From assembly GCA_038208905.1 (NCBI GenBank), contig JBBQYG010000076.1, positions 1 through 17,561 of the forward strand: DNA of 17,561 bases, given 5' to 3'. The notes under the pieces are model-generated. The model had not been told where the DNA came from. It made no database searches and saw only the letters and a program-made list of their open reading frames with translations. Below, piece by piece: positions 1 through 16,985 of the stretch (its first letter is position 1; every line of letters starts with the position of its first letter). The position numbers and the translations under genes were made by a program. This DNA is from Candidatus Sumerlaeia bacterium. GTDB lineage: Bacteria > Sumerlaeota > Sumerlaeia > SLMS01.

Positions 1-61
1 GTATTGTGGGGGTGTTGTTGGGGGGGGGGGGGGGGGGTTTTTTTGGGGGGGGGGGGGGGGG
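1..61. repeat. Low-complexity G/T tract (G18-T7-G17), probably a contig-end or sequencing artefact
   Basis: G run at 20-37, T run at 38-44 and G run at 45-61, at the very start of the window. The ORFs spanning it encode poly-Gly noise. Confidence 0.7.
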
Positions 62-83
62 AATGTTCGGAGATCAAGATATC

Positions 84-1193
84 TCAATCATTCGCAAGCG
101 CGCCGTCCACTTCGTCGCGCCAAGAGTCCTCCATGAGCATCTTGAACCGGAGCTTCACGTCATCGACGCCAAGCTCCAACTCGCCCGCGCGCACCGTTCC
201 TGCGGAGTGCGCCGTCAGTAGTTCGAAGAGCTTCCGCTTCTTCGCCTCATCGGTGTGTCCCGCGAACTCGTGCGGCCACCAAGTACTGGGAACAGTCTTC
301 CCGCCCCGATTGAGGGCGTGGCGGTATCGCTTAAAGCTCGGAACCTTAGCTTCGCCGTCCTTTCCCCACCATATCAAACCATCCGAGATAGGCCTCCTTT
401 GTTCATCGGGGGAATAAGCCCAGACGCGAGTCCGCTTCGGCCATACCTCCTCACCCGATTTTGGATGGATGATCGGGTAGTAGAGGTTCGGGCGCTCCTC
501 TGCCGTCTTGTTGCAGGTATAATCGGAGAGCCGGAAGACCCCGTCTTTATCCTCCAGCCGGTAATTCGAGTCGTTCTCATCGGTCCGTTCAAGCAGACCG
601 CGCGAGAACTCGTCGCTCTTCCGATACACGATCACATGGTCGAACATCGGGGAGAAGCCCAGCGCGTCGTTGGCTGTGGCGTACTTCTTCTGCCATGCAA
701 TCTGCGCGTAGAAGGAACCCTCCTTGCAGAAAATCTCGTCCATCATGCAGCGCATTCGGTGCTGCTCGTTGTCGTCGAGCGTTACGAAAATCACCCCGTC
801 TTCCGCCAGCAACTCCCGCATCAACTTCAGCCTCGGCCACATCATGCAGAGCCATTTGTCGTGGCGTTCGAGGTCTTCCTTGTCCACAGGGCTGGCCTGC
901 TTCAGCCGCTCCTTCATCAACGGGCTGTTCACGGCGTCGTTGTAGCACCACTTCTCGTTCCCCGTGTTGTAGGGCGGGTCGATGAAGATGCAGTCGATCT
1001 TGCCCGCGTGGGTGGGGAGGAGCGCCTTGAGGGCGTGCAGGTTGTCCCCGTGGATGACCAGGTTGTCGTCGAGCGAGGGTTTGCCCCCCTTGGCCGGAAG
1101 CGACTTCGCGGCGTCCACTTCCAGCTACCGGAACGGCACCGTCAGGTGGTGGGCGTAGACGAACTGCTTCCCCTTGAAATCGAGCGTAGGCAC
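84..1193 (-). pseudogene. mod: Type III R-M DNA methyltransferase (Mod) pseudogene, 3'-truncated and fused to a Res-like tail
   Basis: The likely true start is GTG at 1193, preceded by AGAGGGGG. It reads MPTLDFKGKQFVYAHHLTVPFR*LEVDAAK, with an in-frame TAG at 1125-1127. Mod motifs present: IHGDNLHAL, IFIDPPYNTG (motif IV), HDKWLCMMWPRL, LAEDGVIFVTLDDNE. The expected C-terminal PKP and DxFxGSGTT (SAM-binding motif I) region is absent after GHTDEAKK. Confidence 0.85.
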
Positions 1194-3206: not shown

Positions 3207-3944
3207 ATGAGCGCACCCCCCGACCGCCGCACGTTCGCCGTATCGGATGACCGCCGGGCGGTGTTGCGCCCCATCGTGGAGCGCTTCGGCCTCGATCCCG
3301 ACCGTGTCAATTGGGAGCGCCTCAACCGTGCATTCCTGCATCGCAGCCATCGCACCGAGGCGAATCTGGACGAGGACAACGAGCGGCTGGAGTTCCTGGG
3401 CGATAGCGTGATTGGCCTCGCGTGCACGGAGTACCTCCTGCGCGAGAATCCCGCCAGCGACGAGGGCGGTCTCAGCAAGGTACGCGCGGCACTCGTCAGC
3501 CGCGCCATCCTGGGCCGCGTGGGTGAGGACCTTGGCCTCGGGGGATTGCTCCTCCTCGGCACCGGCGAGGATCGCAGCGGCGGGCGACAGCGCGCCTCGA
3601 CACTCGGCTCAACGCTCGAGGCCGTGTGCGGCGCCTTCCATCTCGATTTTCCGTGGGAGGAACTGCGCCAGGTCATCTGGCGCGTGGTGATCGTCCCCGC
3701 GCTGGCCCACAACGAAGGCGCCGTCCTGGTCGATCACAAGTCGGCCTTGCAGGAGCACGTTCAGGCGGAGCTCCAACGCGCCCCCGAATACCGCGTCGTC
3801 GGCGAGACTGGTCCCGACCACGCCAAGATCTTCCACGTCGAGGTCGCCATCGACGGCCGCGTTCTCGGACGCGGCGAAGGCCCCCGCAAGCAGGTCGCAG
3901 AAAACGAGGCGGCCCGGGACGCGCTCAAAAAACTGAAGGGATGA
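3207..3944 (+). CDS. rnc: Ribonuclease III
   Basis: AFLHRS, signature NERLEFLGDSVI, EGGLSKVRAALVS, and a C-terminal dsRBD (DHKSALQE...GPDHAKIF...GEGPRKQVAENEAA). Start taken as ATG 3207 (245 aa). Confidence 0.95.
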   Translation: MSAPPDRRTFAVSDDRRAVLRPIVERFGLDPDRVNWERLNRAFLHRSHRTEANLDEDNERLEFLGDSVIGLACTEYLLRENPASDEGGLSKVRAALVSRAILGRVGEDLGLGGLLLLGTGEDRSGGRQRASTLGSTLEAVCGAFHLDFPWEELRQVIWRVVIVPALAHNEGAVLVDHKSALQEHVQAELQRAPEYRVVGETGPDHAKIFHVEVAIDGRVLGRGEGPRKQVAENEAARDALKKLKG

Positions 3945-4027
3945 GGGCTGAGGTAGGAGGATTGAACTGCAACGCCGAAGGCATCACCGGTAGTTGCCGT
4001 TCATCCCTCATCCCTCCTGCCTCATCA
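3939..4027. repeat. Inverted pair of four-unit heptamer arrays (GGATGAG-like) between convergent rnc and add; long imperfect hairpin
   Basis: GGATGAG GGCTGAG GTAGGAG GATTGAA (3939-3966) faces TTCATCC CTCATCC CTCCTGC CTCATCA (4000-4027). There is an inner GCAAC/GTTGC pair (3969-3973 / 3993-3997). Confidence 0.7.
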
Positions 4028-4034
4028 TTGCCGT

Positions 4035-5156
4035 TCACACTCCCACGCGCGAGCCGGTGAACTGCTCCGTGGGGATGTCGGCCACGGCGGCGCCGGTGGT
4101 GGGCTTTTCTGGGTCGAGGGTGAATTCCTTCAGGCGCTTGAGGGTTGAGTGGATCATCTCCACCTTCTCCCGGTGATGCTGGAACGACGACTTCAGGCTG
4201 AACACGATCAGGTCCTTGATCTCGTTCAGGGTGAAGCCCAACTCCGTGTGGGCCTTCAGCAGTTCGTCCGTCACCGTTGTGCCGCTCATAAGGCGGTTGT
4301 CGGTGCAGATGCAGCACCGCAGCCCAAAGTCATAGTACATGCGCAGCGGATGAAAGCTGATGTCGCGGACAGCGCCGGTCTGGACGTTGCTTGTGAGGTT
4401 GATCTCCAGGGGAATCCGGTGATCGCAGCAGTAGTTGAGCAGATCGCCATCCTCCTTCAGCCGGACGGCGTGGCCCAGGCGGTGGGCGCCGCAATCGTGG
4501 AGGGCCTGGCTGATGGACTCGGGTCCGTATGCCTCGCCCGCGTGGATCGTGATGTTGACGTTGTTCTTCAGGATCAGCTCGAAGGCGTCCTTATGCCGGC
4601 TGGCGGGATAGCTCGCCTCTGCGCCGGCCAGGTCGAAGCCGACGACGCCGCGGTGCTTGTACATCACGCAAAGCTCCGCCATCTGAAGCGTGAACTTTGG
4701 GTCGGCGTTCCTCATGCCACAGATGATCAGGCCCCACTTCACGCCAAACTCGCGCTCGCCGGCTGCCATGCCATCCAGCACCGCGTCCACGATCTCCGTC
4801 AGGCGCATTCCAAGGCGCTGGTGGAGGATCGGCGCATAGCGCACTTCGATGTAGATGATGTTCTCCGCCGCGGCGTCCTCGATCAACTCATAGGCGATGC
4901 GCTTCAGCGCGTCGGAGTCCTGCATCACGCTCAGCGTGATGTCGAACGCCTTGAGGTAGTTCACCAGATTGGCGGCGTTGTCCTGAACCAGCAGCTTGCG
5001 CAGCTCCGCGGGATCATCCACGGGAAGGCGCACCTTGCGGTCTCGCGCCAATTCGATGATGGTCTCGATCCGCAGCGAGCCGTCGAGATGGCAGTGGAGT
5101 TCCGCCTTGGGTAGCTGGAGGAGGAGGTCCCTGTCTATGCGTGCTTGTCGGGTCAT
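4035..5156 (-). CDS. add: Adenosine deaminase (amidohydrolase superfamily)
   Basis: Motifs LPKAELHCHLDGS, YIEVRYAP, VVGFDLAGAE, TIHAGE, HRLGH and TDNRLMS. Start ATG 5156 with AAAGG upstream (373 aa). Substrate specificity cannot be determined from the sequence. Confidence 0.9.
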   Translation of the reverse strand: MTRQARIDRDLLLQLPKAELHCHLDGSLRIETIIELARDRKVRLPVDDPAELRKLLVQDNAANLVNYLKAFDITLSVMQDSDALKRIAYELIEDAAAENIIYIEVRYAPILHQRLGMRLTEIVDAVLDGMAAGEREFGVKWGLIICGMRNADPKFTLQMAELCVMYKHRGVVGFDLAGAEASYPASRHKDAFELILKNNVNITIHAGEAYGPESISQALHDCGAHRLGHAVRLKEDGDLLNYCCDHRIPLEINLTSNVQTGAVRDISFHPLRMYYDFGLRCCICTDNRLMSGTTVTDELLKAHTELGFTLNEIKDLIVFSLKSSFQHHREKVEMIHSTLKRLKEFTLDPEKPTTGAAVADIPTEQFTGSRVGV

Positions 5157-5256: not shown

Positions 5257-6006
5257 TTAGTCGGAAGCCTCTGGCGGCTGCTTCAGAAAGAGGAAGAACT
5301 CGATGTTTCCATCGCCCCCCGCTATAGGTGACTCGCAGCGGCCCAGCACCGCCAGCCCAGCATCGAGCGCGGCGTTGGAGAGCGATTCCACGACCTGCTC
5401 GCGCATGGCTGGGTCCTCCACCACGCCGCCGCGGGGCAAGTTCTCGCGCCCCACTTCGAACTGTGGCTTCACCAGTGTGATCGCGCGGCCTCCAGGCCTG
5501 AGCAGACGGCGAATCACCGGATACGCGCGGCGAAGGGAGATGAAACTGAGGTCCGCGACCATCAGGTCGATTGGCTCTGGGAAATCGGCGGGTGAGAGGT
5601 CGTCCAGATGCGTGCGCTCTCGGGAGACGACGCGGGGATCGAGGAGCAGTTTCTGGTGAAGCTGCCCCCTTCCCACGTCGATGGAATAGACGCGCACCGC
5701 CCCGCGCTGGATGAGGCAGTCGGTGAAGCCCCCCGTGCTCGCGCCCAGGTCGATGGCGGTCGCCCCTGCGGGATCATGAGCGAAGTGGTCCAGCGCCCCC
5801 GCCAGCTTGAGCCCGCCGCGAGAGACGTAGGGACAATCGGCCCCGCGAACGGTGATGGTGGTTTCCTCGTCGATTGCGCGGCCGGGCTTGTCGAGGCATT
5901 CCGAATCCGTATAGACAAGGCCCGCGCGGATAAGGCGCTGGGCCCGTTCGCGGGACTCGGCGAGGCCGCGCTCCACCAGGAGGACGTCGATGCGCTTCTT
6001 CGTCAC
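5257..6006 (-). CDS. tlyA: TlyA-family rRNA (cytidine-2'-O)-methyltransferase (S4 + FtsJ domains)
   Basis: Motifs KRIDVLLVERGL, YVSRGGLKL, DLGASTGGFTDCL, DVGRGQL, DLSFISL, LVKPQFE and SPIAGGDGNIEF. Confidence 0.95.
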   Translation of the reverse strand: MTKKRIDVLLVERGLAESRERAQRLIRAGLVYTDSECLDKPGRAIDEETTITVRGADCPYVSRGGLKLAGALDHFAHDPAGATAIDLGASTGGFTDCLIQRGAVRVYSIDVGRGQLHQKLLLDPRVVSRERTHLDDLSPADFPEPIDLMVADLSFISLRRAYPVIRRLLRPGGRAITLVKPQFEVGRENLPRGGVVEDPAMREQVVESLSNAALDAGLAVLGRCESPIAGGDGNIEFFLFLKQPPEASD

Positions 6007-7319
6007 GATTCGTCCTCGCCGGCGATGGGGAGCTCCACCGTGACCACCGCGCCGCCATCGGGGTGCCCCGCGATGCGGATCGAGCCGCTGTGGGCCTCCA
6101 CGATGCGCCGCGTAATCGCGAGGCCAAGACCAGTTCCCTTGCTTCGCCGCGTATAGAAAGGTTCGAAGGCGCGGTCCGCATCCTGCGGCGACAGACCCGG
6201 TCCGTTGTCGCGAATCTCCAAGCGCACGGGCGGGCGCGGCCCAGCCCCGCGGGCAACGCGAATGACGACGCGCCGCTCGCCGCCACCGTGTTCCTCCAGC
6301 ACCTGCTTCGCGTTCATCAGGATATTGATAAGCGCCTGCTTGAGCTGTACCGCGTCGCCCATCGCCGGCGGGGGAGCGGATGGCACCAGAACCTCTGCGA
6401 CGATGGCGCCCTCCGCGTGATCGTGAAACACGAAGGAGGCAGTCTCCCGCGCCAGCGCCGCCATGTCGATGCGCTCGAATTGCTTCACCTGTGGATTCGT
6501 CAGGTCCAACATGCGGCGGACGATTTCCTGGCAGCGGTCGGCCTCGCGGCGTATGATCTCGAAATCCTCCCGCATCGGATCGTCGGGCTTGGTGGCGCGC
6601 TCAAGGTACTCCGCATAGGCCTTGATGATGCCGATGGGGTTGTTGATCTCGTGGGCCACGCCAGCAGAAATCTCACCGAGCGACGCCAGCGACTCGCCCT
6701 TCAGCAACCGCTCGCGCGCGCGGAGCGATTCCTCCTTCTGCGCGTTCACCAGGCCCACGAAGCCCTGCGTCAGCAGCATCAGCCCCCACATCAGCGCCAG
6801 CCGCTGGGCCATCGCGGGGACTTGCAGGACCGGCGCGGTGGCGATCTCCTGCCAGGCCGCGCCCACGAACAGAAGCGACGCTACAAGGAATCCGAACAGG
6901 TTCTCCTCCCGCGTCCGAAAGAGGGCGAATCCGCGGAGGATCAAGAGGACATAGAGAAGGAAGTACTCGCTGATTCCCGGCAGCGCCGGCTCTATCGCGC
7001 GATCCATGTTGTCGATGATGATCAGGATCGTCACAAACAGCGCATCGACAATGAACGACCCGAGGACAAACGGGCGCACCTGGCGCGGCGTGATTCGGTC
7101 GCGGGCAAAGAAGTAGTGCTCCGCTGCCAGCGAGCCCAGGAAGAAAATCGCCAGGCCGAAAACTTCGGGGCCCGGCGGCGTCCACCCGCGCAGCCAGACC
7201 CAGTGAACCCCACACAGGGCAAACGCCACCCACTTCAGGGGAAGGATGGCGCGCCGCTCCACGTCGCCCAGCCAGGCGACCTGATCGCGTTCGACTCCAC
7301 CTAGAGGCTTTTGGTTCAC
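6003..7319 (-). CDS. Membrane-integral sensor histidine kinase (HisKA + HATPase), no partner regulator in the window
   Basis: H-box GVAHEINNP, N-box QALINILMNA, DNGPG, FEPFYT and GTGLGL, with several hydrophobic segments in the N-terminal half. The start is uncertain (GTG 7319 preferred over 7448). The stop overlaps the tlyA start (GTGA). Confidence 0.9.
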   Translation of the reverse strand: MNQKPLGGVERDQVAWLGDVERRAILPLKWVAFALCGVHWVWLRGWTPPGPEVFGLAIFFLGSLAAEHYFFARDRITPRQVRPFVLGSFIVDALFVTILIIIDNMDRAIEPALPGISEYFLLYVLLILRGFALFRTREENLFGFLVASLLFVGAAWQEIATAPVLQVPAMAQRLALMWGLMLLTQGFVGLVNAQKEESLRARERLLKGESLASLGEISAGVAHEINNPIGIIKAYAEYLERATKPDDPMREDFEIIRREADRCQEIVRRMLDLTNPQVKQFERIDMAALARETASFVFHDHAEGAIVAEVLVPSAPPPAMGDAVQLKQALINILMNAKQVLEEHGGGERRVVIRVARGAGPRPPVRLEIRDNGPGLSPQDADRAFEPFYTRRSKGTGLGLAITRRIVEAHSGSIRIAGHPDGGAVVTVELPIAGEDES

Positions 7320-7452
7320 AGGCGCATTTCCCGGGCAGCGCGAGCTGAGCCGCCCGCGCTGAATGCGAGAGAAGGCAACGGGAATCGCCACCGGCGCAAG
7401 GAGCGCGACGGCCAATCCCGAATCCTGTTGACGATGGCGCCCTCGCAAGTGC

Positions 7453-7484
7453 TTGCATCCGAAAGATGCACAACGAGCTACAAT
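7453..7484 (+). promoter_or_regulatory. Candidate promoter for the vWA block, with a dyad in an over-long spacer
   Basis: TTGCAT (7453-7458), 20 bp, then TACAAT (7479-7484). Perfect dyad TGCATC-N5-GATGCA at 7454-7470. Confidence 0.3.
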
Positions 7485-7546
7485 CGACTAGGTTGGCGAG
7501 TGCCGAGCCACTCGGCCGTTGCTCCGCCGCAAGGAGGGTTCCACCC

Positions 7547-8698
7547 ATGCAGCGTTTTTTTCTGGCGCCGATGCACCGTCTGGCCACGGCACTGGCTCTT
7601 TTCGCAAGTTTGCTTATCCCGGTCGTCGCGCCCGCCCAGTTCGAGGGTTTTGGCTTCCGAATCTATAAGGTCGAGTCCGGCCTGTACCCATTCGTGCAGG
7701 TTTACTTCCGCACCTTCGACCAGAACTTGCGCCCGCTGGTGAATCTCAACGAGCTTAATGTCGGCGTCATGGTGCGCGGGCGAGCCTATGATCCCACCAA
7801 GTTCCAGTACATGGTCCAGAGCATCCAGAACCGGCAGGAAGCCGTCCGGTCTGTCCTCGTCATCGACTGTAGCAAGACCATGGAGGGCGAGCCCTTCGCC
7901 GAGGCGCTGCGCGCCGCCGCGCGCTACGTCGACAGCAAGCGCCCCCAGGACCAGATCGCCATCCTCGCCATCGTGGACAACGAACGCGGCTACGAGAGGG
8001 TGTCGCCTTTCGAGCGCGATCCCGCCGCCCTCGCACGGCGCCTCGCCGATATGAAGGCCGACGGCCTCAAGAGCCGCATTTATGATTCCGTCGCGGCGGC
8101 CATGCAGATGTGCGCCACGACCTCCCAGGGCGGCGCCACCACAGCCGAGGCGGAGTACATTATTTCCAACAGCATCGTGCTTATTTCCGACGGCAACGAC
8201 GAGGGCAGCTCTCTTTCCCGCGAGGAGCTCAACAACCGCATTACCAACCTTCGCGTCCCCGTTCCCGTCTTCTCGCTCGGCTATACCCAGGTGAATCCCG
8301 TTCACCTCTCGAATCTCGAATCGCTGAGCCTGAACTCCTTCGGCCAGTACTTTCCGGTCGGCGCCGACACGAAGGAATTGCAGCGGGTTGTCGAGGACAT
8401 CCAGCGCAACATCCTGATGAACGACTACGTGCTGACCTTTCGGTCCTACATCCCGGTGGACGGGCAGGAGCACCGCCTCAAGCTCGCCATCGAGTATCCC
8501 AAGGGGAGCGGCAAGATTACTTATCAGGGGGCCGAGTTCGAGGCCCTCATGCCGCCGCCGCTCAAGCCGGTGGTGGACGCGATGACGGCACTGGACGGGA
8601 AGCTGAAGCAACTCCCCAACGCGGACCCATCGCTTCCCCCGGGGCCCCTCGTCAAGTTCCTCCCCAAGGACTCCAGTGCCCGCGAGGACAAGAAATAG
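7547..8698 (+). CDS. Secreted von Willebrand factor A (vWA) domain protein, paralogue 1
   Basis: SD AAGGAGG at 7531-7537 before ATG 7547. Signal-peptide-like N-terminus ending VAPA. MIDAS-like VLVIDCSKTM...SRIYDSV...VLISDG. 383 aa. Confidence 0.85.
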   Translation: MQRFFLAPMHRLATALALFASLLIPVVAPAQFEGFGFRIYKVESGLYPFVQVYFRTFDQNLRPLVNLNELNVGVMVRGRAYDPTKFQYMVQSIQNRQEAVRSVLVIDCSKTMEGEPFAEALRAAARYVDSKRPQDQIAILAIVDNERGYERVSPFERDPAALARRLADMKADGLKSRIYDSVAAAMQMCATTSQGGATTAEAEYIISNSIVLISDGNDEGSSLSREELNNRITNLRVPVPVFSLGYTQVNPVHLSNLESLSLNSFGQYFPVGADTKELQRVVEDIQRNILMNDYVLTFRSYIPVDGQEHRLKLAIEYPKGSGKITYQGAEFEALMPPPLKPVVDAMTALDGKLKQLPNADPSLPPGPLVKFLPKDSSAREDKK

Positions 8699-8839
8699 CA
8701 CCCGATGCAAACTCCCGCTCGCGCCGCGCAGTCTGTAATGTCCGAATGGAAGCATCACCCCACGTATCGCACCCCCCCCGGCCCCGGCTCCCCCTCACGC
8801 GGGGAACAGCCCCGGGCAAGTCCGAAAGGAAATCTCAAG

Positions 8840-10039
8840 ATGGCTCAACGACTATCGATCTTTGTCTGGGTACTCGCTCTGGCGCTCCTCGTATCGCTGG
8901 CGCCCTCCGCGGCGCGGGCCCAGAATCAGGGCGTCACCGGATACGGCTTCAAGATTTACCGTGTTGATTCGTCGCTATATCCCTTCACTCAGGTCTATTT
9001 CCGCACCTTCGACCAGAATATGGATCCCCTGATCAACCTGACCGAGCTCAACTTCGGGCTCATGGTGGCGGGGCGCTCCTATGATCCGCTCAAACTCCAG
9101 TACACGATCCAGACACTTCAGAACCGGCAGGAGGCGTTCCGCTCCGTCCTCGTCATCGATTGTAGCAAGACGATGGAGGGCGAGCCGTTTGGCTATGCCC
9201 TGCGCGCCGCCGCCCGCTACGTGGACAGCAAGCGCCCTCAGGACGAGGTCGCGATCCTTGCCATCAAGGACACGGCCACTGGCTGGGAAGTTGTTTCCGA
9301 GTTCGAAAAGGACGGCGGCGCCCTTGCGCGCCGCATTGCCGACATGCGCCCGGACGGATTGAGCACGCGTCTCTATGATTCCGTCGCCGCCGCCATCGCC
9401 ATGTGCGGCACGTCGTCCCAGGGCGGTGCCACAAGCCTGCACGCCAACCTGATCGTCTCCAACTCCATCGTCGTCATCTCCGACGGATTCGACGAGGGGA
9501 GCGCGCTCAGCCGCGAAGAACTCAACAACCGCATCACCAACCTTGCGATCCCCATCCCGATCTATTCCTTCGGCTATACACAGATTAATCCGTCCCACCT
9601 CGTGAATCTGGAATCGCTCAGCAAGAATTCGCTGGGCCGCTACTACGATGTACGCACCGACGGCACGGCCCTCCAGAGGAAGGTCGAGGACATCCAGCGC
9701 AACATCCTCCAGGGCGACTATGTCATCACCTTCCGCGCGTACATTCCGGTGGACGGCGCCAAGCACGACTTCATGGTCGGCGTCGAGTATCCGCGCGGCA
9801 GCGGCAAGATCACCTATCAGTCCGCCCAGTTCTCCGCCATCCAGCCGCCGCCGCTTCCGCCGATCCGCGATGCGATGGTCAAGCTCAACGGCAAGCTGAA
9901 GCCCATCCCCGACGGCAACCCCTACCTGGATTCCGGCGATCTGGAGCAGTTCATGCCCAAGGCGGGCGGCGGCAAGGCTTCCTCCTCAAGCACTGACGAG
10001 TTCATGCCCAAGGCGCCCGCTCCGGCCGCGCCGCAGTAG
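8840..10039 (+). CDS. Secreted vWA domain protein, paralogue 2
   Basis: SD AAAGGA at 8825-8830 before ATG 8840. Signal peptide ending AARA. VLVIDCSKTM...TRLYDSV...VVISDG. Collinear with paralogue 1. 399 aa. Confidence 0.87.
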   Translation: MAQRLSIFVWVLALALLVSLAPSAARAQNQGVTGYGFKIYRVDSSLYPFTQVYFRTFDQNMDPLINLTELNFGLMVAGRSYDPLKLQYTIQTLQNRQEAFRSVLVIDCSKTMEGEPFGYALRAAARYVDSKRPQDEVAILAIKDTATGWEVVSEFEKDGGALARRIADMRPDGLSTRLYDSVAAAIAMCGTSSQGGATSLHANLIVSNSIVVISDGFDEGSALSREELNNRITNLAIPIPIYSFGYTQINPSHLVNLESLSKNSLGRYYDVRTDGTALQRKVEDIQRNILQGDYVITFRAYIPVDGAKHDFMVGVEYPRGSGKITYQSAQFSAIQPPPLPPIRDAMVKLNGKLKPIPDGNPYLDSGDLEQFMPKAGGGKASSSSTDEFMPKAPAPAAPQ

Positions 10040-10047
10040 AGGAAAGT

Positions 10048-10085
10048 CGAGAGCGCCCCCCACACCGGGGGGCGCTCTCGCTTTC
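10048..10085 (+). terminator. Strong intra-operon hairpin (weak terminator, attenuator or mRNA stabiliser)
   Basis: Perfect 14-bp stem CGAGAGCGCCCCCC (10048-10061) / GGGGGGCGCTCTCG (10067-10080) with a 5-nt loop, followed only by CTTTCT. Confidence 0.65.
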
Positions 10086-10100
10086 TGGCAACCCGCCCCC

Positions 10101-12695
10101 ATGCCCTTCCTTGTATCCCTGAATCCCGCGCTCATGCACCGGGAGTTCGACCTCTCCGATGGAGAGGTCGTTGTCGGTCGGGACGCATCGAGTTGCGAAG
10201 TCATCGTCACCGGACATACGATCTCCCGCCGCCACTGCCGCATCGTTCCCGGGCCCGGAGGCGCGTGGGCGATCGAGGACCTCCAGTCCACCAACGGCAC
10301 CTTTGTCAACGGCCGGCGCGTGCCCCAGGCGGTGCTGTCCCATCGCGACGTGATATCCCTCGGCGACGCCAACAATTTCGCCCTGCGATTTCAGGCCCAG
10401 CGGTCCGGCGACGGCGCAGAATCCTTCCTCCTCCCCGCGCAGGATCGCTGGATGATCGGACGCGCGGCGGCATCCGACATCTCGCTCCCCTTCGAGGCGA
10501 TGGTGTCCTTCCACCATGCGGAATTGCGCCGCAGCGGCGATTGCGTGGAGGTGCGCGACCTCGGCAGCCTCAACGGAACGTTCGTTTCCGGCGTGCGCGT
10601 CCGCCATGCCGTCGTGGAACCCGGGGACGTCGTGACGGTCGGTTCCACGGCGTTACGCGTGGAGCCCGCGGAAGGTGGCGCGCTACGCGTCGTATCGAGG
10701 GAGATCGGCAAGGACATCTCCCTTGAATGCGTGGGCCTCGTGCGCGAGGTGGCCAACCACCGCCGCCTTCTCGACGAGATAGCTCTCTCCATCCGCCCCG
10801 GCGAATTCGTGGGGCTGCTCGGCCCCAGCGGCGCGGGGAAGTCCACGCTCCTCAAGGCGCTCAACGGCTACGCGCCCCCAACATCGGGTTGCGTTCTCGT
10901 GAACGAGACGCCGCTGCATCGTTCCATCGAGATGTTCCGCAGCGCCATCGGCTACGTCCCACAGGACGATATCGTCCACACCGATCTAACCGTGCGGCAA
11001 TCGCTCGATTTCGTTGCCCGTTTGCGGCTCCCCGCCGACGTCACGAGGCGCGACCGCCTCGATCTTGTGGATACTACCATCGAGACGCTGGGCCTCAGCC
11101 ACGTCGCCGCCAGCCGCATCCACCAACTCAGCGGTGGCCAGCGCAAGCGCGTCTCCATCGGCTGCGAACTCATCACGCGCCCCGGCATCCTCTTTCTCGA
11201 CGAGCCCACCTCGGGACTGGACCCAAGCACCGAGGAGCGCCTGATGCGCCACTTCCGCGAGATGACGCGCCTGGGCTCCACGATCCTGATCACCACGCAC
11301 ATCCTGTACAGCCTGGACCTGCTCGACCGCGTGGTGATTCTTTCTCGCGGAAAGCTGGTCTTCTTCGGCACGCCCGCCGAGGCGCTCGTGTTCTTCGGCG
11401 ATGCACAGCCGCTGGAGCGCGCGACGCAGATTTTCGACCTCTTGGAGGGCATCCAGCCAGGGCAGGAAACCGCGCCGTCGCCGCAGCTTGCCGACGAGCG
11501 CGCCGCGGAATACCAGCGACGGTTTCTCGAGTCGCCGCTCTATCGCCGCCACGTCCGCGAGACCTGCTCCCCGATGGCTGCGCACCTGCACGAGGTGATG
11601 GAGCAGGGTGGCCCCGCCGCCGACGTGGACGGTACCCACGCAATCGCCGGGCGAAAGGGCCGCTCCTACTACGAGTCACTGCTCCGGCGCCCACGCGAGC
11701 GGCGGCGGCGCTTCGCCTGGGGGGCGATCCTTTCGCCGAGGTTGATTCTCACCCAGGCGCTGCGTCATATCGCCGTCAAGCTCGCCTCGCCGCGCCGAGC
11801 GCTTCTCTATCTCGCCATTCCCATCATCCTTGCGCTCGTGACGCTGACGCTGCGGGTACCGGGATCGTTGTCGAACGAGGAAGCAGATAGGCAACGTGCG
11901 GAAATCGCGGAGTCCATCGATCCTCGCGTGGGTCCCGGCCTCAAGTCCGTGCTGTCGCCCAATCCAGAGACCGACGAGCGTGACGCGGCGCAGATCGTCT
12001 ATGCAATCCGCTACGAGGGACCGTCACGCCTCCCTGTTTCCCTCAGCGTCCTCGTCATGTTCGTCATGACGGCGGTCTTCACGGGGACGCTGATGTCGTG
12101 TCTCGACATTTCCACGGAGCGGTCGATCTACCTGCGAGAGAGGCTCGCCGGACTTCGCATCGCTGACTATCTCACCTCCAAACTGCCGTTCCTCTTCGCC
12201 GTGCTCGCGCTGCAGAGTGGGATCTTCCTTGGGCTCTGCCTCCTTAAACCGGGGCTGCACGATGTCGATGTCCTGGGTGTGTTTCTCGCGCTGCTTGCAA
12301 TGTCCTGTACCGCGGGGGCGATGGGCCTGTTCCTTAGTGCCCTCGATCCCACTCCGGGCCAGTTCTCCGTCGTGCTCGCGCTCGTCGCGGTGCTTCCCCA
12401 ACTCGTACTCTCCGGCGGGCTGGCTCCCGATTTCTATGGTGGCATGGCCGCGCCGCTGCGCTGGCTCGCCGATGCGTTCCCCGCGCGGTGGGGGCTGGAG
12501 ATGCTGATGACGGCGTGTTACGACCAGCCCCATCGCGAATCGCTCGCCTGGACGGGCGCCTTCGTCACCGATATGGCGGGATTCCGTTTTGGAACCGGGG
12601 TCTATACACGGAGCCTCGTCGCCCTTGCCTTGCAGACTGCCTGCTGGCTGCTCTTGACGGGCGCGGTCCTGCGGCGCCTTGATCACCGTCGATAA
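10101..12695 (+). CDS. FHA-FHA-ABC ATPase-ABC2 membrane fusion transporter (Rv1747-like architecture)
   Basis: FHA1 (VGR...SRRH...STNGTFVNG) and FHA2 (IGR...SFHH...SLNGTFVSG). Walker A GPSGAGKST, Q-loop YVPQDD, signature LSGGQ, Walker B LFLDEPT, H-loop ITTH. C-terminal multi-TM domain. Confidence 0.93.
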   Translation: MPFLVSLNPALMHREFDLSDGEVVVGRDASSCEVIVTGHTISRRHCRIVPGPGGAWAIEDLQSTNGTFVNGRRVPQAVLSHRDVISLGDANNFALRFQAQRSGDGAESFLLPAQDRWMIGRAAASDISLPFEAMVSFHHAELRRSGDCVEVRDLGSLNGTFVSGVRVRHAVVEPGDVVTVGSTALRVEPAEGGALRVVSREIGKDISLECVGLVREVANHRRLLDEIALSIRPGEFVGLLGPSGAGKSTLLKALNGYAPPTSGCVLVNETPLHRSIEMFRSAIGYVPQDDIVHTDLTVRQSLDFVARLRLPADVTRRDRLDLVDTTIETLGLSHVAASRIHQLSGGQRKRVSIGCELITRPGILFLDEPTSGLDPSTEERLMRHFREMTRLGSTILITTHILYSLDLLDRVVILSRGKLVFFGTPAEALVFFGDAQPLERATQIFDLLEGIQPGQETAPSPQLADERAAEYQRRFLESPLYRRHVRETCSPMAAHLHEVMEQGGPAADVDGTHAIAGRKGRSYYESLLRRPRERRRRFAWGAILSPRLILTQALRHIAVKLASPRRALLYLAIPIILALVTLTLRVPGSLSNEEADRQRAEIAESIDPRVGPGLKSVLSPNPETDERDAAQIVYAIRYEGPSRLPVSLSVLVMFVMTAVFTGTLMSCLDISTERSIYLRERLAGLRIADYLTSKLPFLFAVLALQSGIFLGLCLLKPGLHDVDVLGVFLALLAMSCTAGAMGLFLSALDPTPGQFSVVLALVAVLPQLVLSGGLAPDFYGGMAAPLRWLADAFPARWGLEMLMTACYDQPHRESLAWTGAFVTDMAGFRFGTGVYTRSLVALALQTACWLLLTGAVLRRLDHRR

Positions 12696-12722
12696 TCAAG
12701 CTAGGCTACGCCCTCCCACTTC

Positions 12723-14396
12723 ATGCTCCCGCCACGCTACCAGAACGTCCGCCCACTCGGATCAGGCAACATGGGCGACGTGCTCTATGCGGAGGATACC
12801 ACCCTCAAGCGCCCCGTTGCGATCAAGCGCGTGAAGGCCGGTCTGCTCGAGAACGACGAGATCCGCCAGCGCGTCGAGCGCGAGACGCTCCTTCAGGCGC
12901 GCATTGGCGCGCATCCGCACATCGCCACGCTCTACGAACGCATCGACCTCGCGGGCGGCGAACTTCTTATCGTGATGGAGTACATCGACGGAGAGACGCT
13001 CAAGTCGCTCCTCGAGCGCGCCGCCGCCGAGGGGCGCGCGCTCACCATTGGTGAAATCATCAACATCGCCGATCAGGTGCTTCAGGCGCTCTCCCACATC
13101 CACTCCCACGGCATCATCCACCGCGATATCAAGCCGGGAAACATCATGGTGCGGCGCGACGCGGAGGGGAAACTCGTCGCCAAGCTCCTCGACTTCGGCA
13201 TCGCCCGCCATCAGGCCGACACGGCGCTTCCGGTACTCACGCGGGAAGGAGGCAGTACGCCGGGCACGCCGCTCTATATGGCACCCGAGCAGATCGATCC
13301 CGCCCAGTTCGGCGAGGCCACGCCCGCCACCGACATCTACGCCCTCGGCGTGATCCTCTATCAGATGGTGGCAGGGCATCCGCCGTTTGCCGGCACACTG
13401 ACCGAGGTGATGAACGCCCACCTCGTCAAGATGCCCCCGCCGATTTCCATTCCCAAGGAAGCCGCGGAGGCGATGCCGATCGGCGGCATCATCCTCAAGG
13501 CGCTTTCAAAGCTTCCCGCCGAGCGCTACCACTCGGCACGCGCGATGCGCGACGCGCTCAACAGTCTCCTTACGCACCTCACCGCCAGCCGCATTCAGAT
13601 TCTCGAAGCCAAGCGGCCCAGCAGCACCATGATCGACACCACGGAGGCTATGGCGGCGGCGGATGGCGCGCGCACCGTGGTCTCCGCGGGTGCTCAGACG
13701 GTCATTGCAGGCGCGGTGCCTTCTTCCAACGTGGAGGCTACCCGGCTGGCCGATGGCTCCGCGCCAAACGTGAGCACGCGCGCGGGCCTGCGAAACCCGG
13801 TGCTGGTTCTGCTCTCTGTGGGGGCTATCCTGCTTTTTGGAGCCATGGCTGTACTCGCCGTCATCATTCGCGGCGCGTTGATGAGCGGAGCGGAGGAAGG
13901 AAAGCCTCCAGTGATTGTCTTCGGCGAACGCCCCCAGCCCACTCCCACACCCGCGCCCACGGAAGCAATCGTCACCGATCTCGTCAGGCTACCGCCCGAG
14001 TCCGACCTCGAACCTTCCCATGCGGAACGGGAGGCCACGCCCGCGCCCACCGCGTCGCCACTTCCCAGCGAAGCCCCTTCCACCGATGAGCGCAGTGCTC
14101 TCGATACCTTTGACGAGGAGTACAAGAAACGACAAGCCGAGCGTGCAAAGTCCGGTGCCGGCGCCCCTACCGTCGCGCCGCCTACCGCTGCGCCTGCCGC
14201 CCCGACAATCGCGCCGGCGCAACCGACCCAGGGACCGCCCCCAACAGCCGTGCCCCCCTCCCCGCAGCCCCCCTCCCCGCAGCCCCCCACGCCTCAGCCA
14301 CCAACCGAGGCGCCACCCCAGCCCACTCAAAAGCCTCCATCGAGCGGACCCGTTCCAAACGCCCCCGGACGCCTTCCCGGAAGATGGGTGGACTGA
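12723..14396 (+). CDS. Hanks-type Ser/Thr protein kinase, single TM helix, Pro/Ala/Thr-rich C-terminal tail
   Basis: Motifs GSGNMG, VAIK, HRDIKPGN, DFG, GTPLYMAPE and DIYALG. Hydrophobic helix VLVLLSVGAILLFGAMAVLAVII, then a low-complexity Pro-rich tail. Confidence 0.95.
   Translation: MLPPRYQNVRPLGSGNMGDVLYAEDTTLKRPVAIKRVKAGLLENDEIRQRVERETLLQARIGAHPHIATLYERIDLAGGELLIVMEYIDGETLKSLLERAAAEGRALTIGEIINIADQVLQALSHIHSHGIIHRDIKPGNIMVRRDAEGKLVAKLLDFGIARHQADTALPVLTREGGSTPGTPLYMAPEQIDPAQFGEATPATDIYALGVILYQMVAGHPPFAGTLTEVMNAHLVKMPPPISIPKEAAEAMPIGGIILKALSKLPAERYHSARAMRDALNSLLTHLTASRIQILEAKRPSSTMIDTTEAMAAADGARTVVSAGAQTVIAGAVPSSNVEATRLADGSAPNVSTRAGLRNPVLVLLSVGAILLFGAMAVLAVIIRGALMSGAEEGKPPVIVFGERPQPTPTPAPTEAIVTDLVRLPPESDLEPSHAEREATPAPTASPLPSEAPSTDERSALDTFDEEYKKRQAERAKSGAGAPTVAPPTAAPAAPTIAPAQPTQGPPPTAVPPSPQPPSPQPPTPQPPTEAPPQPTQKPPSSGPVPNAPGRLPGRWVD
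14253..14297 (+). repeat. 15-bp coding tandem repeat (PPSPQ, PPSPQ, PPTPQ) in the kinase tail
   Basis: CCCCCCTCCCCGCAG at 14253-14267 and 14268-14282, with a degenerate third copy CCCCCCACGCCTCAG at 14283-14297. Confidence 0.85.
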
Positions 14397-14404
14397 ACCG
14401 GCAG

Positions 14405-14426
14405 GGATGAGGTTTGAGGGATGAAC
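14405..14426 (+). repeat. Heptamer array (GGATGAG GTTTGAG GGATGAA C) between the convergent kinase and mtnB
   Basis: Same unit as the arrays at 3939-4027. Shares the terminal GAGGGATGAAC with the minus-strand array at 3999-4027. Confidence 0.6.
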
Positions 14427-14473
14427 ATGCGGTGAGGGCTGTTGTTTCCTGCAATTCACCGTCCTATCCCCGG

Positions 14474-15097
14474 CTAAAGCCTTCCCCTCATCGCCATGTA
14501 ACGGAAAATGTACTCGATTAGCTCGATGTAATTGCGCGCGGCCGTGGGGTTCCTCGCCCAAACGGTGACTCCGTGGTTCTCGATCACGAGGACAGGGATG
14601 CGGGGAGGGCCGACTGTGAAGAGATTGCGAATCTCCTCCGCGATTCGCGGGACTTCCAGATGATTGCGGAGGACGGGGATCGGGACCAGGGGGTCCTGCT
14701 CCCAGATATCGAAACCCTTGATCATCTCAAGCGGCGGGAGGACGAGCGACCCCCCCTCGGCCCAACCGGAGACCAGGTTCCCCTCCACCGAATGCACATG
14801 ATAGATAGCGCGAGTTTCCGGCACGATGGAGTAGAGAGCGCGGTGGATCACCGTTTCCGCCGAAGGCTTGTCGGATGGCGCAAATCGATGCAGAACACCG
14901 CCGTCCAGACCCACCTCCAAGAAATCGGATTCCGCCAACTCGCCCTTGGACCGACCGCTTGCCGTGATCCAGAAGGAGGAATCTCCCTGGCGTGCGGAGA
15001 CGTTCCCCGACGTGCCCACCATCCAGTCATTGAGGTAGAACGATCTCGCGTGCGCCGCGAGGGTGCGCCGCAATTCCGCGTCGGCGTCCGAGTGCAT
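14474..15097 (-). CDS. mtnB: Methylthioribulose-1-phosphate dehydratase (class II aldolase family)
   Basis: Motifs WMVGTSGNVS, ITASGRSKG, KPSAETVIH, YHVHS, LEMIKG and NHGVTVWA. Confidence 0.88.
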   Translation of the reverse strand: MHSDADAELRRTLAAHARSFYLNDWMVGTSGNVSARQGDSSFWITASGRSKGELAESDFLEVGLDGGVLHRFAPSDKPSAETVIHRALYSIVPETRAIYHVHSVEGNLVSGWAEGGSLVLPPLEMIKGFDIWEQDPLVPIPVLRNHLEVPRIAEEIRNLFTVGPPRIPVLVIENHGVTVWARNPTAARNYIELIEYIFRYMAMRGRL

Positions 15098-15181
15098 AAA
15101 GAGGAGGGCTCCTGAGTCCGCAGTCCTGCCGGGAAAAACACTCTTTGCGTGGTGAAGACTTGGGCAACGGCAAAAGCGGGT

Positions 15182-15637
15182 CTAGACGCGGCTCGCGTCG
15201 GGACGCCAATGCCGGATGGCCTTCTTTATCTCAGTTGGCGCCAGATTCTCCTCGGCCGCCCGATGCGCCAAGTAGCGCAATTCTTCGTTGCCGGCAAACC
15301 GGAGGGCAACGATCTGGGGGCGGGAAAGCCTTGCCGCGATGGGGGCGAAAGCTTGTCCCGTGGTCTCCGCATAGCGCAACGCGACCTCTGTCTGTATCAC
15401 CCGATCCTGAAGCATCAGCGCATAGATGCGAACACGAATCGTGATGATCACCAGGCCCGTGGCTACCAGTAAGATGGCAAAGGCGCCCACCACCTCCCTC
15501 CCGGGCGCGCCACCCGTCACCGACAGGACAAAGTTGACCGCAGCCGCAATACCGCCAAGAAGGACAAATGGCGAGGCCACCAAGTGGTAGATGGGGTCGA
15601 TACGCTTGTGATTTGCGAAATTCTGGGGCTCTTTCAT
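15182..15637 (-). CDS. DUF6526-like membrane protein
   Basis: Recalled family pattern QNFANH..., YALMLQDRVI...E..LRY, QIVALRFA..EL, EIKKAI..WRPD..RV. Two hydrophobic segments. Confidence 0.75.
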   Translation of the reverse strand: MKEPQNFANHKRIDPIYHLVASPFVLLGGIAAAVNFVLSVTGGAPGREVVGAFAILLVATGLVIITIRVRIYALMLQDRVIQTEVALRYAETTGQAFAPIAARLSRPQIVALRFAGNEELRYLAHRAAEENLAPTEIKKAIRHWRPDASRV

Positions 15638-15990: not shown

Positions 15991-16263
15991 ATGGGAAACA
16001 CTGTCAAGGCCGCACATGAAGTGGAAGAAACCGTCGAGCACATGAAGGAAACCGTCCGCGAGGGCTATGAAACCGCCAAGGCCAAGGTTGCCGAGGTCGG
16101 CGAGAAGGCGCATGAAGTCTGGGACAAGGCGGCGGACACCTCACTGAACGACGTCCATGATTCCGTGAAGGCCTATGTCGGCAAGAACCCCGGCACCACG
16201 CTCCTAGCTGCCGCGGGCGTCGGACTGCTCGTGGGCCTCCTGATCCGCGGACATCGCCACTAG
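15991..16263 (+). CDS. DUF883 / ElaB-YqjD-like tail-anchored protein
   Basis: SD AAAGGAG. Charged helical N-terminus, then YVGKNPGTTLLAAAGVGLLVGLLIRG, matching the yv..nP....aa.vG.l.G.l C-terminal anchor. Confidence 0.85.
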   Translation: MGNTVKAAHEVEETVEHMKETVREGYETAKAKVAEVGEKAHEVWDKAADTSLNDVHDSVKAYVGKNPGTTLLAAAGVGLLVGLLIRGHRH

Positions 16264-16266
16264 GCC

Positions 16267-16680
16267 ATGTCAGCGCCCCGAACTGATCAAACAGCGGGCG
16301 GCGAGCCCAAGCTTAACGGCTCGTCGCCCAAGGGGGGGCGGGAGCCACAGGCTCTCGACGATCTGAATCGCCTGATTCAGAGTGTTCAGGCCGCCGGCTC
16401 GAGAGTCTTCGCCGAAGTAGCGGACCTAATCCGCGCCCAGTGGAGACTCACCTCCTATGTCTTTGCTGGCTCCGTGCGAATTCTGGCGCTGCGTTTTGGC
16501 GCCCTCGCCATCGTGGGCCTGCTCGCGCTCGCAACATGGATTTTCGTCAATGTGACGGTGTGGCAGGCGATCGGATCGCTCACCGGGCTGTCATTCGCAC
16601 CGCCTCTCGCCCTCGTTCTACTTAACTCAATAGCTGCCTGGTCGATCTACCACTGGCAGACAACACTGAGGCTGAAATGA
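16267..16680 (+). CDS. Small two-TM membrane protein, YqjE / holin-superfamily-like by architecture and position
   Basis: Amphipathic N-terminal half and two hydrophobic helices. Starts 3 bp after the DUF883-like gene. Confidence 0.6.
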   Translation: MSAPRTDQTAGGEPKLNGSSPKGGREPQALDDLNRLIQSVQAAGSRVFAEVADLIRAQWRLTSYVFAGSVRILALRFGALAIVGLLALATWIFVNVTVWQAIGSLTGLSFAPPLALVLLNSIAAWSIYHWQTTLRLK

Positions 16681-16985
16681 CAACACCGAAACATAACCTC
16701 GCCCAGTTGCGAATTCAGCGCGATCAGGCTCTGAACCGAACGGCCGCATCTGCGGATTCGGCGCAAGGGCTCATCCCACAAATCAAGTCGTTTGCAGCTC
16801 AGCATCCCTGCACTGCCATCGGCACTGCGGCGGCGGTGGGAATCGCCGCGGGCATGCTAGTGGGCCCCTCGCTAACCCGCCGACTGGTCCGCACCGCGGG
16901 ACTGCTCTTAGTCAGGCCACTGGTTGTTGACTTGGCTCAGGATCTGATGCGCACTGCCAACGGCGATTCATTCGACGAGAGCTGA
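16677..16985 (+). CDS. Small membrane-associated protein, YqjK/DUF883-like
   Basis: ATGA overlap with the previous gene. FAAQHPCTAIGTAAAVGIAAGML resembles the DUF883-type anchor motif. Confidence 0.6.
   Translation: MTTPKHNLAQLRIQRDQALNRTAASADSAQGLIPQIKSFAAQHPCTAIGTAAAVGIAAGMLVGPSLTRRLVRTAGLLLVRPLVVDLAQDLMRTANGDSFDES

Follow-up and report, generated by a model that had tools for sequence, protein, structure and literature searches.

A secreted vWA protein, a membrane Ser/Thr kinase and a putative phospho-regulated exporter form a recurrent gene set that includes a Sumerlaeota locus

The question raised by this locus is whether four co-oriented genes make up one trans-envelope system and, if so, on which side of its exporter the secreted vWA proteins act. 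In the window (the whole stretch of 17,561 nucleotides analysed here, from a Candidatus Sumerlaeia bacterium), two vWA genes are followed by genes for an FHA-FHA-ABC exporter and a Ser/Thr kinase (Table 1). The open reading frames and Pfam matches bear out the preliminary description of strands, domains and gaps of 141, 61 and 27 bp.

Table 1. Features of the four-gene locus and its flanks (nucleotide positions refer to the window, residues to the named protein)
Feature	Position	Strand	Details
Histidine kinase gene	6003-7448	-	Left flank, divergent from the four genes
vWA1 gene	7547-8698	+	383 aa; start is the second ATG of ORF 7466-8698
vWA1 putative signal peptide	residues ~1-30		
vWA1 N-terminal beta-sandwich	residues ~31-98		
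vWA1 vWA domain with predicted MIDAS site	residues 99-292		D107-x-S109-x-T111, S176, D215
vWA1 C-terminal beta-sandwich	residues 293-335		Followed by a helix and tail
vWA2 gene	8840-10039	+	399 aa; start is an internal ATG of ORF 8705-10039
Inverted repeat	10048-10080	.	Perfect, 15 bp, GC-rich; between vWA2 stop and exporter start
FHA-FHA-ABC exporter gene	10101-12695	+	864 aa; Pfam
FHA1	10167-10364	+	Ends at about residue 88
FHA2	10449-10643	+	Starts at about residue 117
Exporter nucleotide-binding motifs	residues 241, 343, 363		Walker A, ABC signature and Walker B, in that order; all kept
Exporter membrane helices	between residues 562 and 857		Six predicted
Exporter periplasmic loop	residues 585-643 (11853-12029)	+	After the first membrane helix
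Ser/Thr kinase gene	12723-14396	+	557 aa; single-pass, Hanks-type; Pfam
Kinase domain	residues ~6-290		K35, HRD 133-135 and DFG 157-159, all kept
Kinase conserved threonines	R317-T318-V; A339-T340-R-L		Before the membrane helix
Kinase membrane helix	residues ~360-382		Hydropathy 360-378; end taken at ~382
Kinase periplasmic tail	residues 383-557		175 residues, 26% proline; ends GRWVD
mtnB	14474-15097	-	Right flank, convergent to the four genes

The vWA family is encoded in 92 non-redundant loci, 26 of which are fully covered (at least 4.5 kb upstream and 6 kb downstream). Synteny in these 26 is obligate: a Ser/Thr kinase gene lies no more than 6.5 kb from the vWA gene in every one, and an FHA-FHA-ABC gene lies within 6 kb in 24 and within 7 kb in the other two. 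The expected co-occurrence of the three gene types across phyla thus held throughout the fully covered loci. Part of the transporter or kinase is visible in 42 of the 66 shorter loci, and the sequences of the remaining 24 are too short on the relevant side. Record titles place the loci in at least five bacterial phyla, with members from Hydrogenedentota, Nitrospirota, Gammaproteobacteria (Methylococcales), Thermodesulfobacteriota/'delta' and Planctomycetota. This uncharacterised gene set of several phyla always couples a secreted vWA protein, of adhesion type and predicted to bind metal, to a membrane kinase and a putatively phospho-regulated exporter. It occurs in two gene orders, which argues for selection on the gene set rather than for an inherited order. 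The vWA protein is its most conserved part: in the best tblastn segments, its identity to family members from the other gene order is 51–62%, compared with about 33–39% for the transporter and 27–32% for the kinase domain.

Both vWA proteins of the window pass the curated Pfam cut-offs for VWA_2 and VWA. Each begins with a basic stretch and a hydrophobic segment (residues 12–30, then APA/QF, in vWA1; residues 7–25, then ARA/QN, in vWA2), and both N-termini look like Sec signal peptides with AxA sites. A lipobox, or a C-terminal membrane anchor with basic residues after it (a cytoplasmic stub), is found in other members of the family, and the earlier placement of these proteins outside the cytoplasm therefore stands. 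The AlphaFold2 model of vWA1 has a mean pLDDT of 88.9; ArnB structures (8s05, 5a8j) are among its best fold matches, and ITIH1 and 4fx5 are also matched. vWA2 has the same architecture and is 66% identical to vWA1 (N-terminal beta-sandwich 66%, vWA domain 71%, C-terminal beta-sandwich 63%, tail 44%), and it keeps the C-terminal IPDGNPY motif of the family, which has diverged in vWA1. The MIDAS motif is intact in both proteins and predicts a metal site. In an alignment of 30 family sequences, D107 and S109 are at least 90% conserved and D215 is invariant. Most members have T or S at position 111, where the window has T; at position 176, vWA1 has S and vWA2 has T. Assignment to TIGR03436 (acidobact_VWFA) was rejected, with scores of 30.9 and 27.1 bits against a curated cut-off of 81.25 bits.

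From their predicted extracytoplasmic location it follows that the vWA proteins would be neither phosphorylated by the kinase domain nor bound by the cytoplasmic FHA domains. Cytoplasmic operons of vWA, FHA, kinase and PP2C proteins are known from Sulfolobus (ArnA/ArnB) and Deinococcus (DRA0331-DRA0334); they share with the window a cluster of genes for vWA, FHA and Ser/Thr kinase proteins (bioRxiv 10.64898/2026.01.23.701218). Unlike these, the window has extracytoplasmic vWA proteins, FHA domains carried on a transporter and no adjacent PP2C gene; the only PP2C_2 match in the genome lies outside the window, on contig C71. That the window encodes no phosphatase was counted against the module reading given below. 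Membership in this operon type was rejected on the putative signal peptides of the window proteins and the lipobox or C-terminal anchor of their relatives.

The exporter carries, in one chain and in this order, two FHA domains (Pfam E 1.7e-37), ABC_tran and ABC2_membrane, and GR, SxxH and NG motifs, which we take to be FHA signatures, are kept in both FHA domains. Its nucleotide-binding domain is closest to those of ABCA and ABCG exporters, a possible sign that the substrate is a lipid or some other hydrophobic component of the envelope. The same single-chain arrangement, with two FHA domains at the N-terminus ahead of a nucleotide-binding domain and an ABC-2 membrane domain, is seen in mycobacterial Rv1747 (865 aa), and the two solved FHA chains of Rv1747 are among the best matches of known structure to the FHA domains of the window (6cah, 1.8e-11; 6ccd, 5.9e-6). 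As in the Rv1747/PknF pair, the gene of a single-pass Hanks kinase is adjacent and co-oriented. Unlike that pair, the exporter and kinase of the module come with an obligate vWA partner that is secreted and, in most loci, with a glycine-zipper lipoprotein; we know of neither for Rv1747 and PknF. Rv1747 and pknF form one operon in which the kinase regulates the transporter positively, according to PMC3138270 and PMC3908365, so this pairing remains a sound literature anchor. A further difference concerns the phospho-acceptors of Rv1747, T152 and T210, which PMC8339232 places in a non-structured linker. The window exporter lacks a long disordered, threonine-bearing linker of this kind: the FHA1-FHA2 segment is about 28 residues long and contains no threonine. 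The Rv1747 arrangement is therefore inapplicable here, which was counted against the mechanism proposed below, and docking on the kinase itself is an inference.

Pkinase (E 7.5e-46) is the sole Pfam match of the kinase. The label 'sensor-less' given to it earlier is fair, as it has one membrane helix and a proline-rich tail in which no Pfam domain was found. A possible docking site, [RK]-T-[VLMI] no more than 75 residues before the membrane helix, is present in 39 of 54 module kinases, including that of the window; its absence from the other 15 was counted against FHA docking. A fused kinase–vWA form of the family was not found among longer proteins, which is weak evidence against the module reading.

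We place at about 0.5 the probability of the following reading: a conserved envelope module reached this genome by horizontal transfer and is present here as a derived copy, and in it a kinase switches an FHA exporter, as in the Rv1747/PknF type, with a periplasmic vWA protein as the input arm. The common module consists of an Rv1747-like exporter with two cytoplasmic phosphothreonine-binding FHA domains, a single-pass Ser/Thr kinase whose periplasmic tail is long, disordered and rich in proline, a secreted protein of beta-sandwich/vWA/beta-sandwich build that keeps its MIDAS site, and a glycine-zipper lipoprotein. The kinase would autophosphorylate the conserved threonines just inside the membrane, and the two FHA domains of the exporter would dock on these phosphothreonines, switching or clustering the exporter as PknF does for Rv1747. 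The periplasmic vWA protein would serve as the extracytoplasmic input arm, its metal site binding a ligand or partner and so controlling kinase activity. Regulation of the exporter by the kinase through the FHA domains is the likely part of this scheme; the position of the vWA protein on the input rather than the output side is offered more tentatively. The module would probably tune export to the state of the cell envelope, and the host envelope appears to be of Gram-negative type, judged by the lipoprotein and periplasmic partners in relatives.

The contrary placement, in which the kinase still controls the exporter and the vWA protein, rather than sensing, accepts, scaffolds or anchors the exported product in the periplasm, much like the periplasmic partners of other envelope exporters, strikes us as unlikely. 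It would account for the constant company that the vWA gene keeps with the exporter, and the far greater conservation of the vWA protein than of the kinase is expected of a protein that handles a fixed substrate. The anchoring or lipidation of some members, the kinship of the nucleotide-binding domain to ABCA/ABCG lipid exporters and the independent recurrence of vWA duplication (in the window, in L087 and in L123/L089) also fit this placement. However, no conserved exporter surface obviously receives the vWA protein. The loop of about 60 residues that was proposed earlier as a docking site does exist after the first membrane helix; it occurs only in the gene order of the window and is absent from the other order, which makes up half of the family. 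As the vWA proteins are just as conserved where the loop is missing, it is unlikely to be a general docking site.

The only precedent that combines a vWA domain with a Ser/Thr kinase, PpkA of the P. aeruginosa H1-T6SS, also speaks against an output role, having its vWA domain at the input according to PMC3224232 and PMC13713981. These papers describe a kinase, a disordered linker and an extracellular (periplasmic) vWA domain in one chain that works with TagQ, TagR, TagS and TagT, among them periplasmic and lipoprotein activators; this precedent, on which the preliminary description drew, holds and was counted in favour of a periplasmic vWA input arm. With the TagQRST-PpkA-PppA-Fha1 pathway as set out there (PMC13713981, PMC3224232), the module has in common a trans-envelope set of components, a Hanks kinase, a disordered region, a periplasmic vWA domain, a periplasmic protein, an ABC-type ATPase complex, an FHA target and, in relatives of the window, a lipoprotein. 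The differences are as clear. In the window, the vWA domain is not part of the kinase but is secreted as a protein of its own, an ABC protein of the ABC-2 type carries the FHA domains in the same chain, and a TagR-like FGE domain (by Pfam), an adjacent PP2C gene and type VI genes are all absent. TagST, for its part, is Lol/MacB-like.

Membership in the TagQRST-PpkA pathway was rejected on the lack of a kinase-fused vWA domain and of a linked type VI system, lipoprotein or adjacent PP2C gene. The broader proposal that the locus is a type VI secretion regulator, or an anti-phage defence system based on a Ser/Thr kinase, recalls the same parts list; it also draws on matches of the kinase to the PADLOC models PD-T4-6 (E 2.6e-70) and mad6 and on a VgrG-like gene near the related locus L018. 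We regard it as very improbable indeed. The PADLOC matches are limited to generic kinase and ATPase domains, with none to the vWA proteins, and L018 is alone in having a VgrG-like gene among 13 related loci with Pfam-scanned neighbours. The Pfam scan found no type VI genes in the window, as stated earlier, and the sheath protein VipB (PF05943) had no match in the 93.9%-complete genome, whereas the E. coli control was matched.

A bolder variant makes the module a general sensor of envelope integrity, acting across the envelope to gate a lipid-type exporter; we consider it rather doubtful. The kinase tail, at about 175 proline-rich residues, would act as a tether able to span the periplasm; in the common form its C-terminal tryptophan motif would hook the lipoprotein, and the vWA protein would use its metal site to read a second signal. 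Damage to the envelope or a change in its geometry would alter these contacts and, through the phosphothreonine/FHA switch, turn on the exporter for repair or remodelling. If true, the module would answer envelope stress independently of transcription, in parallel with the type VI 'tit-for-tat' sensor, and would suggest a possible input for pairs of the Rv1747/PknF type; the window would then hold a natural 'one-arm' variant in which the vWA arm alone is left, duplicated.

The window copy departs from the commonest form of the module, which has the glycine-zipper lipoprotein and one vWA gene. The lipoprotein is present in 21 of the 26 complete loci and was found neither in the window nor in the rest of the genome; the kinase stops two residues past the conserved tryptophan, without the usual C-terminal tryptophan motif; and vWA1 and vWA2 group together as sisters in the family tree (SH-aLRT 99). 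Under the preferred reading of a derived copy, this genome would have lost the lipoprotein arm, truncated the kinase motif and duplicated the vWA gene. The preliminary description was thus correct about the synteny, the secreted vWA proteins and the presence of two of them here; its loop docking is unlikely to be general, and the two-vWA layout is a lineage-specific duplication. The module was not found in the 74 other genomes of the phylum that were searched, and the genes that flank it are native; on this sequence evidence it is a laterally acquired island.

Such a copy could be decaying or working differently. A decaying or rewired island, whose genes are no longer one system and whose vWA pair may be expressed and used alone, for example as adhesins, would be in keeping with the restricted distribution in the phylum, the missing lipoprotein, the shortened kinase and a terminator-like hairpin 3' of vWA2. 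We nevertheless think it improbable: all four reading frames are open, with catalytic and binding motifs intact, and the lipoprotein is also absent from five of the 26 complete loci elsewhere. Parts of the stretch recur, with few base changes listed, on contigs of four other metagenome runs, and a single X1 contig spans 7400–10694, crossing the vWA2–transporter junction.

The hairpin at that junction, with the two vWA genes on one side and the genes for transporter and kinase on the other, was counted against a four-gene module. Its stem reaches about 20 bp once the A-rich and T-rich flanks are counted, its RNAfold energy is -44.2 kcal/mol, and a terminator scan finds it terminator-like on both strands; its strength makes co-transcription of all four genes uncertain. 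It may act as an attenuator or as a stabiliser of the mRNA 3' end.

The vWA family represented in the window is compact and occurs beside the same partners in other genomes. Among 1.84 billion representative proteins, 27 match at E ≤ 1e-30, and past those 27 similarity drops to generic vWA levels; a larger collection holds 522 members, typically 55–65% identical. We assembled related loci around family members, 25 from species genomes and 79 from metagenomes (92 once near-identical copies were merged), used tblastn to place pieces of the transporter, the kinase and the vWA protein, and scanned 13 of the loci with Pfam for their gene content. Loci with at least 4.5 kb of upstream and at least 6 kb of downstream sequence were treated as complete (n = 26). 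All 26 have a kinase gene within 6.5 kb. In 24 of them an FHA-ABC gene is no more than 6 kb away; in the other two (L018 and L106) that gene lies at a distance of 6.5–7.0 kb, beyond a second kinase gene. A transporter or kinase portion was seen in 42 of the other 66 loci. Sequences of the 24 with neither end on the side expected to hold them: 23 have less than 1.3 kb upstream, and one of the 24, L087, ends within its second vWA copy. The vWA homologues are therefore syntenic with FHA-ABC and kinase genes elsewhere, as the preliminary description had anticipated, and the module is real and conserved. Its genes occur in two orders. The order vWA–transporter–kinase, that of the window, is found in 10 of the 26 complete loci, and named genome records with it are mostly titled Hydrogenedentota or Nitrospirota. 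The second order, transporter–kinase–vWA, accounts for 14 of the 26 plus the two distant cases, in named genome records whose titles give Methylococcales, ‘delta’ lineages and a Planctomycetaceae bin.

Within the window, ORF listing together with Pfam and NCBIfam domain assignment confirmed four co-oriented genes separated by 141, 61 and 27 bp, with the divergent and convergent neighbours and the domains that had been read from the sequence, so that the earlier observation was correct.

Genes of the module and its immediate neighbours in the window
Feature	Position	Strand	Basis or remark
vWA1	7547–8698	+	ORF listing, translation; Pfam VWA_2 and VWA
vWA2	8840–10039	+	ORF listing, translation; Pfam VWA_2 and VWA
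Transporter, 864 residues	10101–12695	+	Pfam FHA (two), ABC_tran, ABC2_membrane
Kinase, 557 residues	12723–14396	+	Pfam Pkinase only
Histidine kinase, divergent neighbour	6003–7448	−	Flank of the gene set
mtnB, convergent neighbour	14474–15097	−	Flank of the gene set

The spacer that separates vWA2 from the transporter gene contains a GC-rich inverted repeat of 15 perfectly matched base pairs (10048–10080), bordered by A-rich and T-rich sequence. With these flanks it folds at −44.2 kcal/mol (RNAfold), and it is terminator-like on both strands. Strong hairpins occupy the same spacer in some relatives (L009, L053 and L016) and not in all. Among the data sets listed as containing the window, none was RNA. 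A promoter scan returned no sigma-70-like sites, a result that is uninformative for this lineage.

Both vWA proteins begin with a basic stretch and a single hydrophobic segment followed by an AxA site. In an AlphaFold2 model of vWA1 (mean pLDDT 88.9, from a 30-sequence alignment), a beta-sandwich is followed by the vWA domain, then by another, small beta-sandwich and finally by a helix; the model is closest in fold to inter-alpha-inhibitor heavy chain 1, archaeal ArnB and a vWA protein from an actinobacterium. In the family alignment, the putative metal site has nearly invariant D107 and S109 and an invariant D215; position 111, a T in the window, is either T or S in the majority of aligned members, and at position 176 vWA1 has S and vWA2 has T. 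The two proteins group as sisters in the family tree (SH-aLRT support 99), so the duplication occurred within the lineage of the window. Such tandem copies have also formed in L087 and, at an earlier point, in the L123/L089 group. Looking for longer, fused versions of the vWA protein brought up none, which is weak evidence. DNA contigs from four metagenome runs overlap parts of the window, and in two of these runs (X1 and X4) one contig each carries a 2-base deletion at 9401, within vWA2, at 90% likeness; because their depths differ from that of the main strain, these contigs may come from other organisms.

The transporter keeps its Walker A, Walker B and ABC signature motifs, and its nucleotide-binding domain is nearest to ABCA- and ABCG-type exporters. 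Both FHA domains retain the GR, SxxH and NG motifs, and their best solved relatives are the two FHA chains of Rv1747 (6cah, 1.8e-11; 6ccd, 5.9e-6). The preliminary description had proposed that the vWA proteins might dock on the loop that follows the first transporter helix (residues 585–643 in the window). This loop is present in the gene order of the window and missing from transporters of the second order, yet the vWA proteins of that order are 51–62% identical to vWA1. The loop is thus unlikely to be the shared docking site, and we set the proposal aside.

Kinases of both gene orders share a kinase domain, a pre-membrane segment, one membrane helix and a long tail rich in proline, lysine and serine. 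The window kinase keeps K35, HRD and DFG, and its single membrane helix (about residues 360–382) is followed by a 175-residue tail that is 26% proline. A motif [RK]-T-[VLMI] precedes the helix in 39 of 54 module kinases, including that of the window, and 35 of the 54 have a tryptophan 9–13 residues from the C-terminus, in contexts such as GGWKVIxxKDRKVN or WTIIPGGAHKTD. Most relatives continue for about 10 residues beyond this conserved tryptophan. The window kinase lacks most of the motif, since it ends in GRWVD; the TGA that follows precedes six further in-frame sense codons and a second stop (14385–14417). The variants listed include no change at the stop codon, which is covered by a single contig from run X1 at a depth of 2.6. 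Several second-order kinases (L008, L012, L014, L015, L018, L020 and L023) begin with a CPxC...CxxC zinc-ribbon-like segment followed by AHLDxAPNG, a segment that is absent from the window kinase.

The common form of the module also includes a lipoprotein, for which we built a profile (A3) from six downstream genes of related loci. The protein is marked by an L-x-G-C box whose cysteine is invariant, by a glycine zipper and by a beta domain at its C-terminus, and in 21 of the 26 complete loci the profile places its gene directly behind the core. The lipoprotein was found neither in the window with the profile nor in the 93.9%-complete genome in a search with one member. At 15991–16985 are small ORFs whose C-terminal ends are glycine zippers of the DUF883 type (E = 7.7e-4 and 1.3e-6); by the A3 profile they show no kinship to the lipoprotein. 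Across 52 loci, the tryptophan motif and the lipoprotein occur together in 34, the lipoprotein without the motif in 10, neither in 7 and the motif without the lipoprotein in 1. These loci are related to one another, and the vWA tree provides just five independent contrasts, in about 2.6 of which the motif tracks the lipoprotein, the reverse never occurring (p ≈ 0.25; significance is unreachable with five pairs). We therefore rejected the co-variation as a result and kept it as a lead: it suggests that the tryptophan motif may dock the lipoprotein, and that the lineage of the window may have lost the two together. As the window kinase lacks the full terminal motif, the L016 pair was chosen for a complex prediction; its vWA protein (residues 29–381) with Mg and the last 45 residues of its kinase, with alignments as input, scored 0.00 twice in runs without controls, which gives no verdict.

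How the module came to be in this genome is indicated by its distribution among related genomes. The vWA family was found in none of 40 relatives and, at E = 1e-30, in none of 74 other genomes of the phylum; a full-length FHA-ABC relative occurs in 1 of the 40, at 34% identity. The flanking TlyA has counterparts at 47–73% identity in 20 of 20 relatives. Of the four related genomes in which the TlyA region was examined, three have TlyA next to the same histidine kinase and none shows the module, so we rejected the histidine kinase as a module part. Because the vWA family was not found in the relatives searched while this pair (5257–7448) is native and conserved in same-family genomes, the module is an island within a native neighbourhood, starting directly after the pair. 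The nearest named relatives of the window module are titled Hydrogenedentota, with transporters 53–55% identical. In the window the module takes a derived form: the vWA gene is present twice, the lipoprotein is missing and the end of the kinase is shortened.

As far as our literature searches show, the module is undescribed: no published description was found in the literature searched, most subscription journals lying outside its coverage. Matches to defence models were confined to generic kinase and ATPase domains. The transporter–kinase core has the architecture and adjacency of Rv1747/PknF, an FHA-FHA-ABC exporter with an adjacent kinase (PMC3138270, PMC3908365, PMC8339232); unlike Rv1747, the window transporter has no long threonine-bearing linker between its FHA domains. 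The whole set resembles the Pseudomonas TagQRST–PpkA–Fha1 pathway. There, dimerisation of the kinase is proposed to be brought about by a lipoprotein together with a periplasmic protein, and the kinase itself contains a disordered region and a folded domain in the periplasm (PMC13713981), the latter a vWA domain (PMC3224232). In contrast to that pathway, the set in the window has no vWA domain fused to its kinase, no type VI genes, no phosphatase gene next to it and no TagR-type protein. ArnB, matched by the vWA1 model, provides a link to cytoplasmic vWA–FHA–kinase–phosphatase operons, which a preprint describes in Deinococcus (10.64898/2026.01.23.701218); the topology differs, because the vWA proteins of the window are located outside the cytoplasm.

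We strongly infer a step from the kinase to the FHA-bearing exporter. Pairs of this kind have so far had one well-studied case, in which the signal of the kinase is unclear. In Gram-negative-type lineages from several phyla, a highly conserved secreted vWA protein always travels with the pair, as a lipoprotein usually does. These two proteins are specific candidates for the extracytoplasmic input still to be accounted for; for the vWA protein, the candidate roles are sensor or output partner. The motifs that lend themselves to testing are threonines T318 and T340, close to the membrane on its inner side, the metal-binding site of the vWA protein and the C-terminal tryptophan motif of the kinase. 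Some records named Methylobacter by their source carry the module, and genetics would be feasible if cultured module-bearing strains exist.

Several loci have further features. A record titled Bathyarchaeia archaeon (L005) combines flagellar rod genes with a complete bacterial module (3779–4198, 7998–15530), and the contig is probably mis-binned; an ORF at 9150–10301, considered as a divergent second vWA gene, was rejected because it has no similarity to the family and no Pfam family. L018 (10612–15195) carries, 1.5–6 kb downstream of its vWA gene, one VgrG-like gene (Phage_GPD, Gp5_C) together with a gene resembling M91 peptidases; it is the only one of the 13 Pfam-scanned loci in which this pair was seen. 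Genes for DUF4359, M48 peptidase, PP2C and PilZ proteins recur in the flanks of second-order loci (L008, L015, L019, L023 and L014) and may be further accessory parts.
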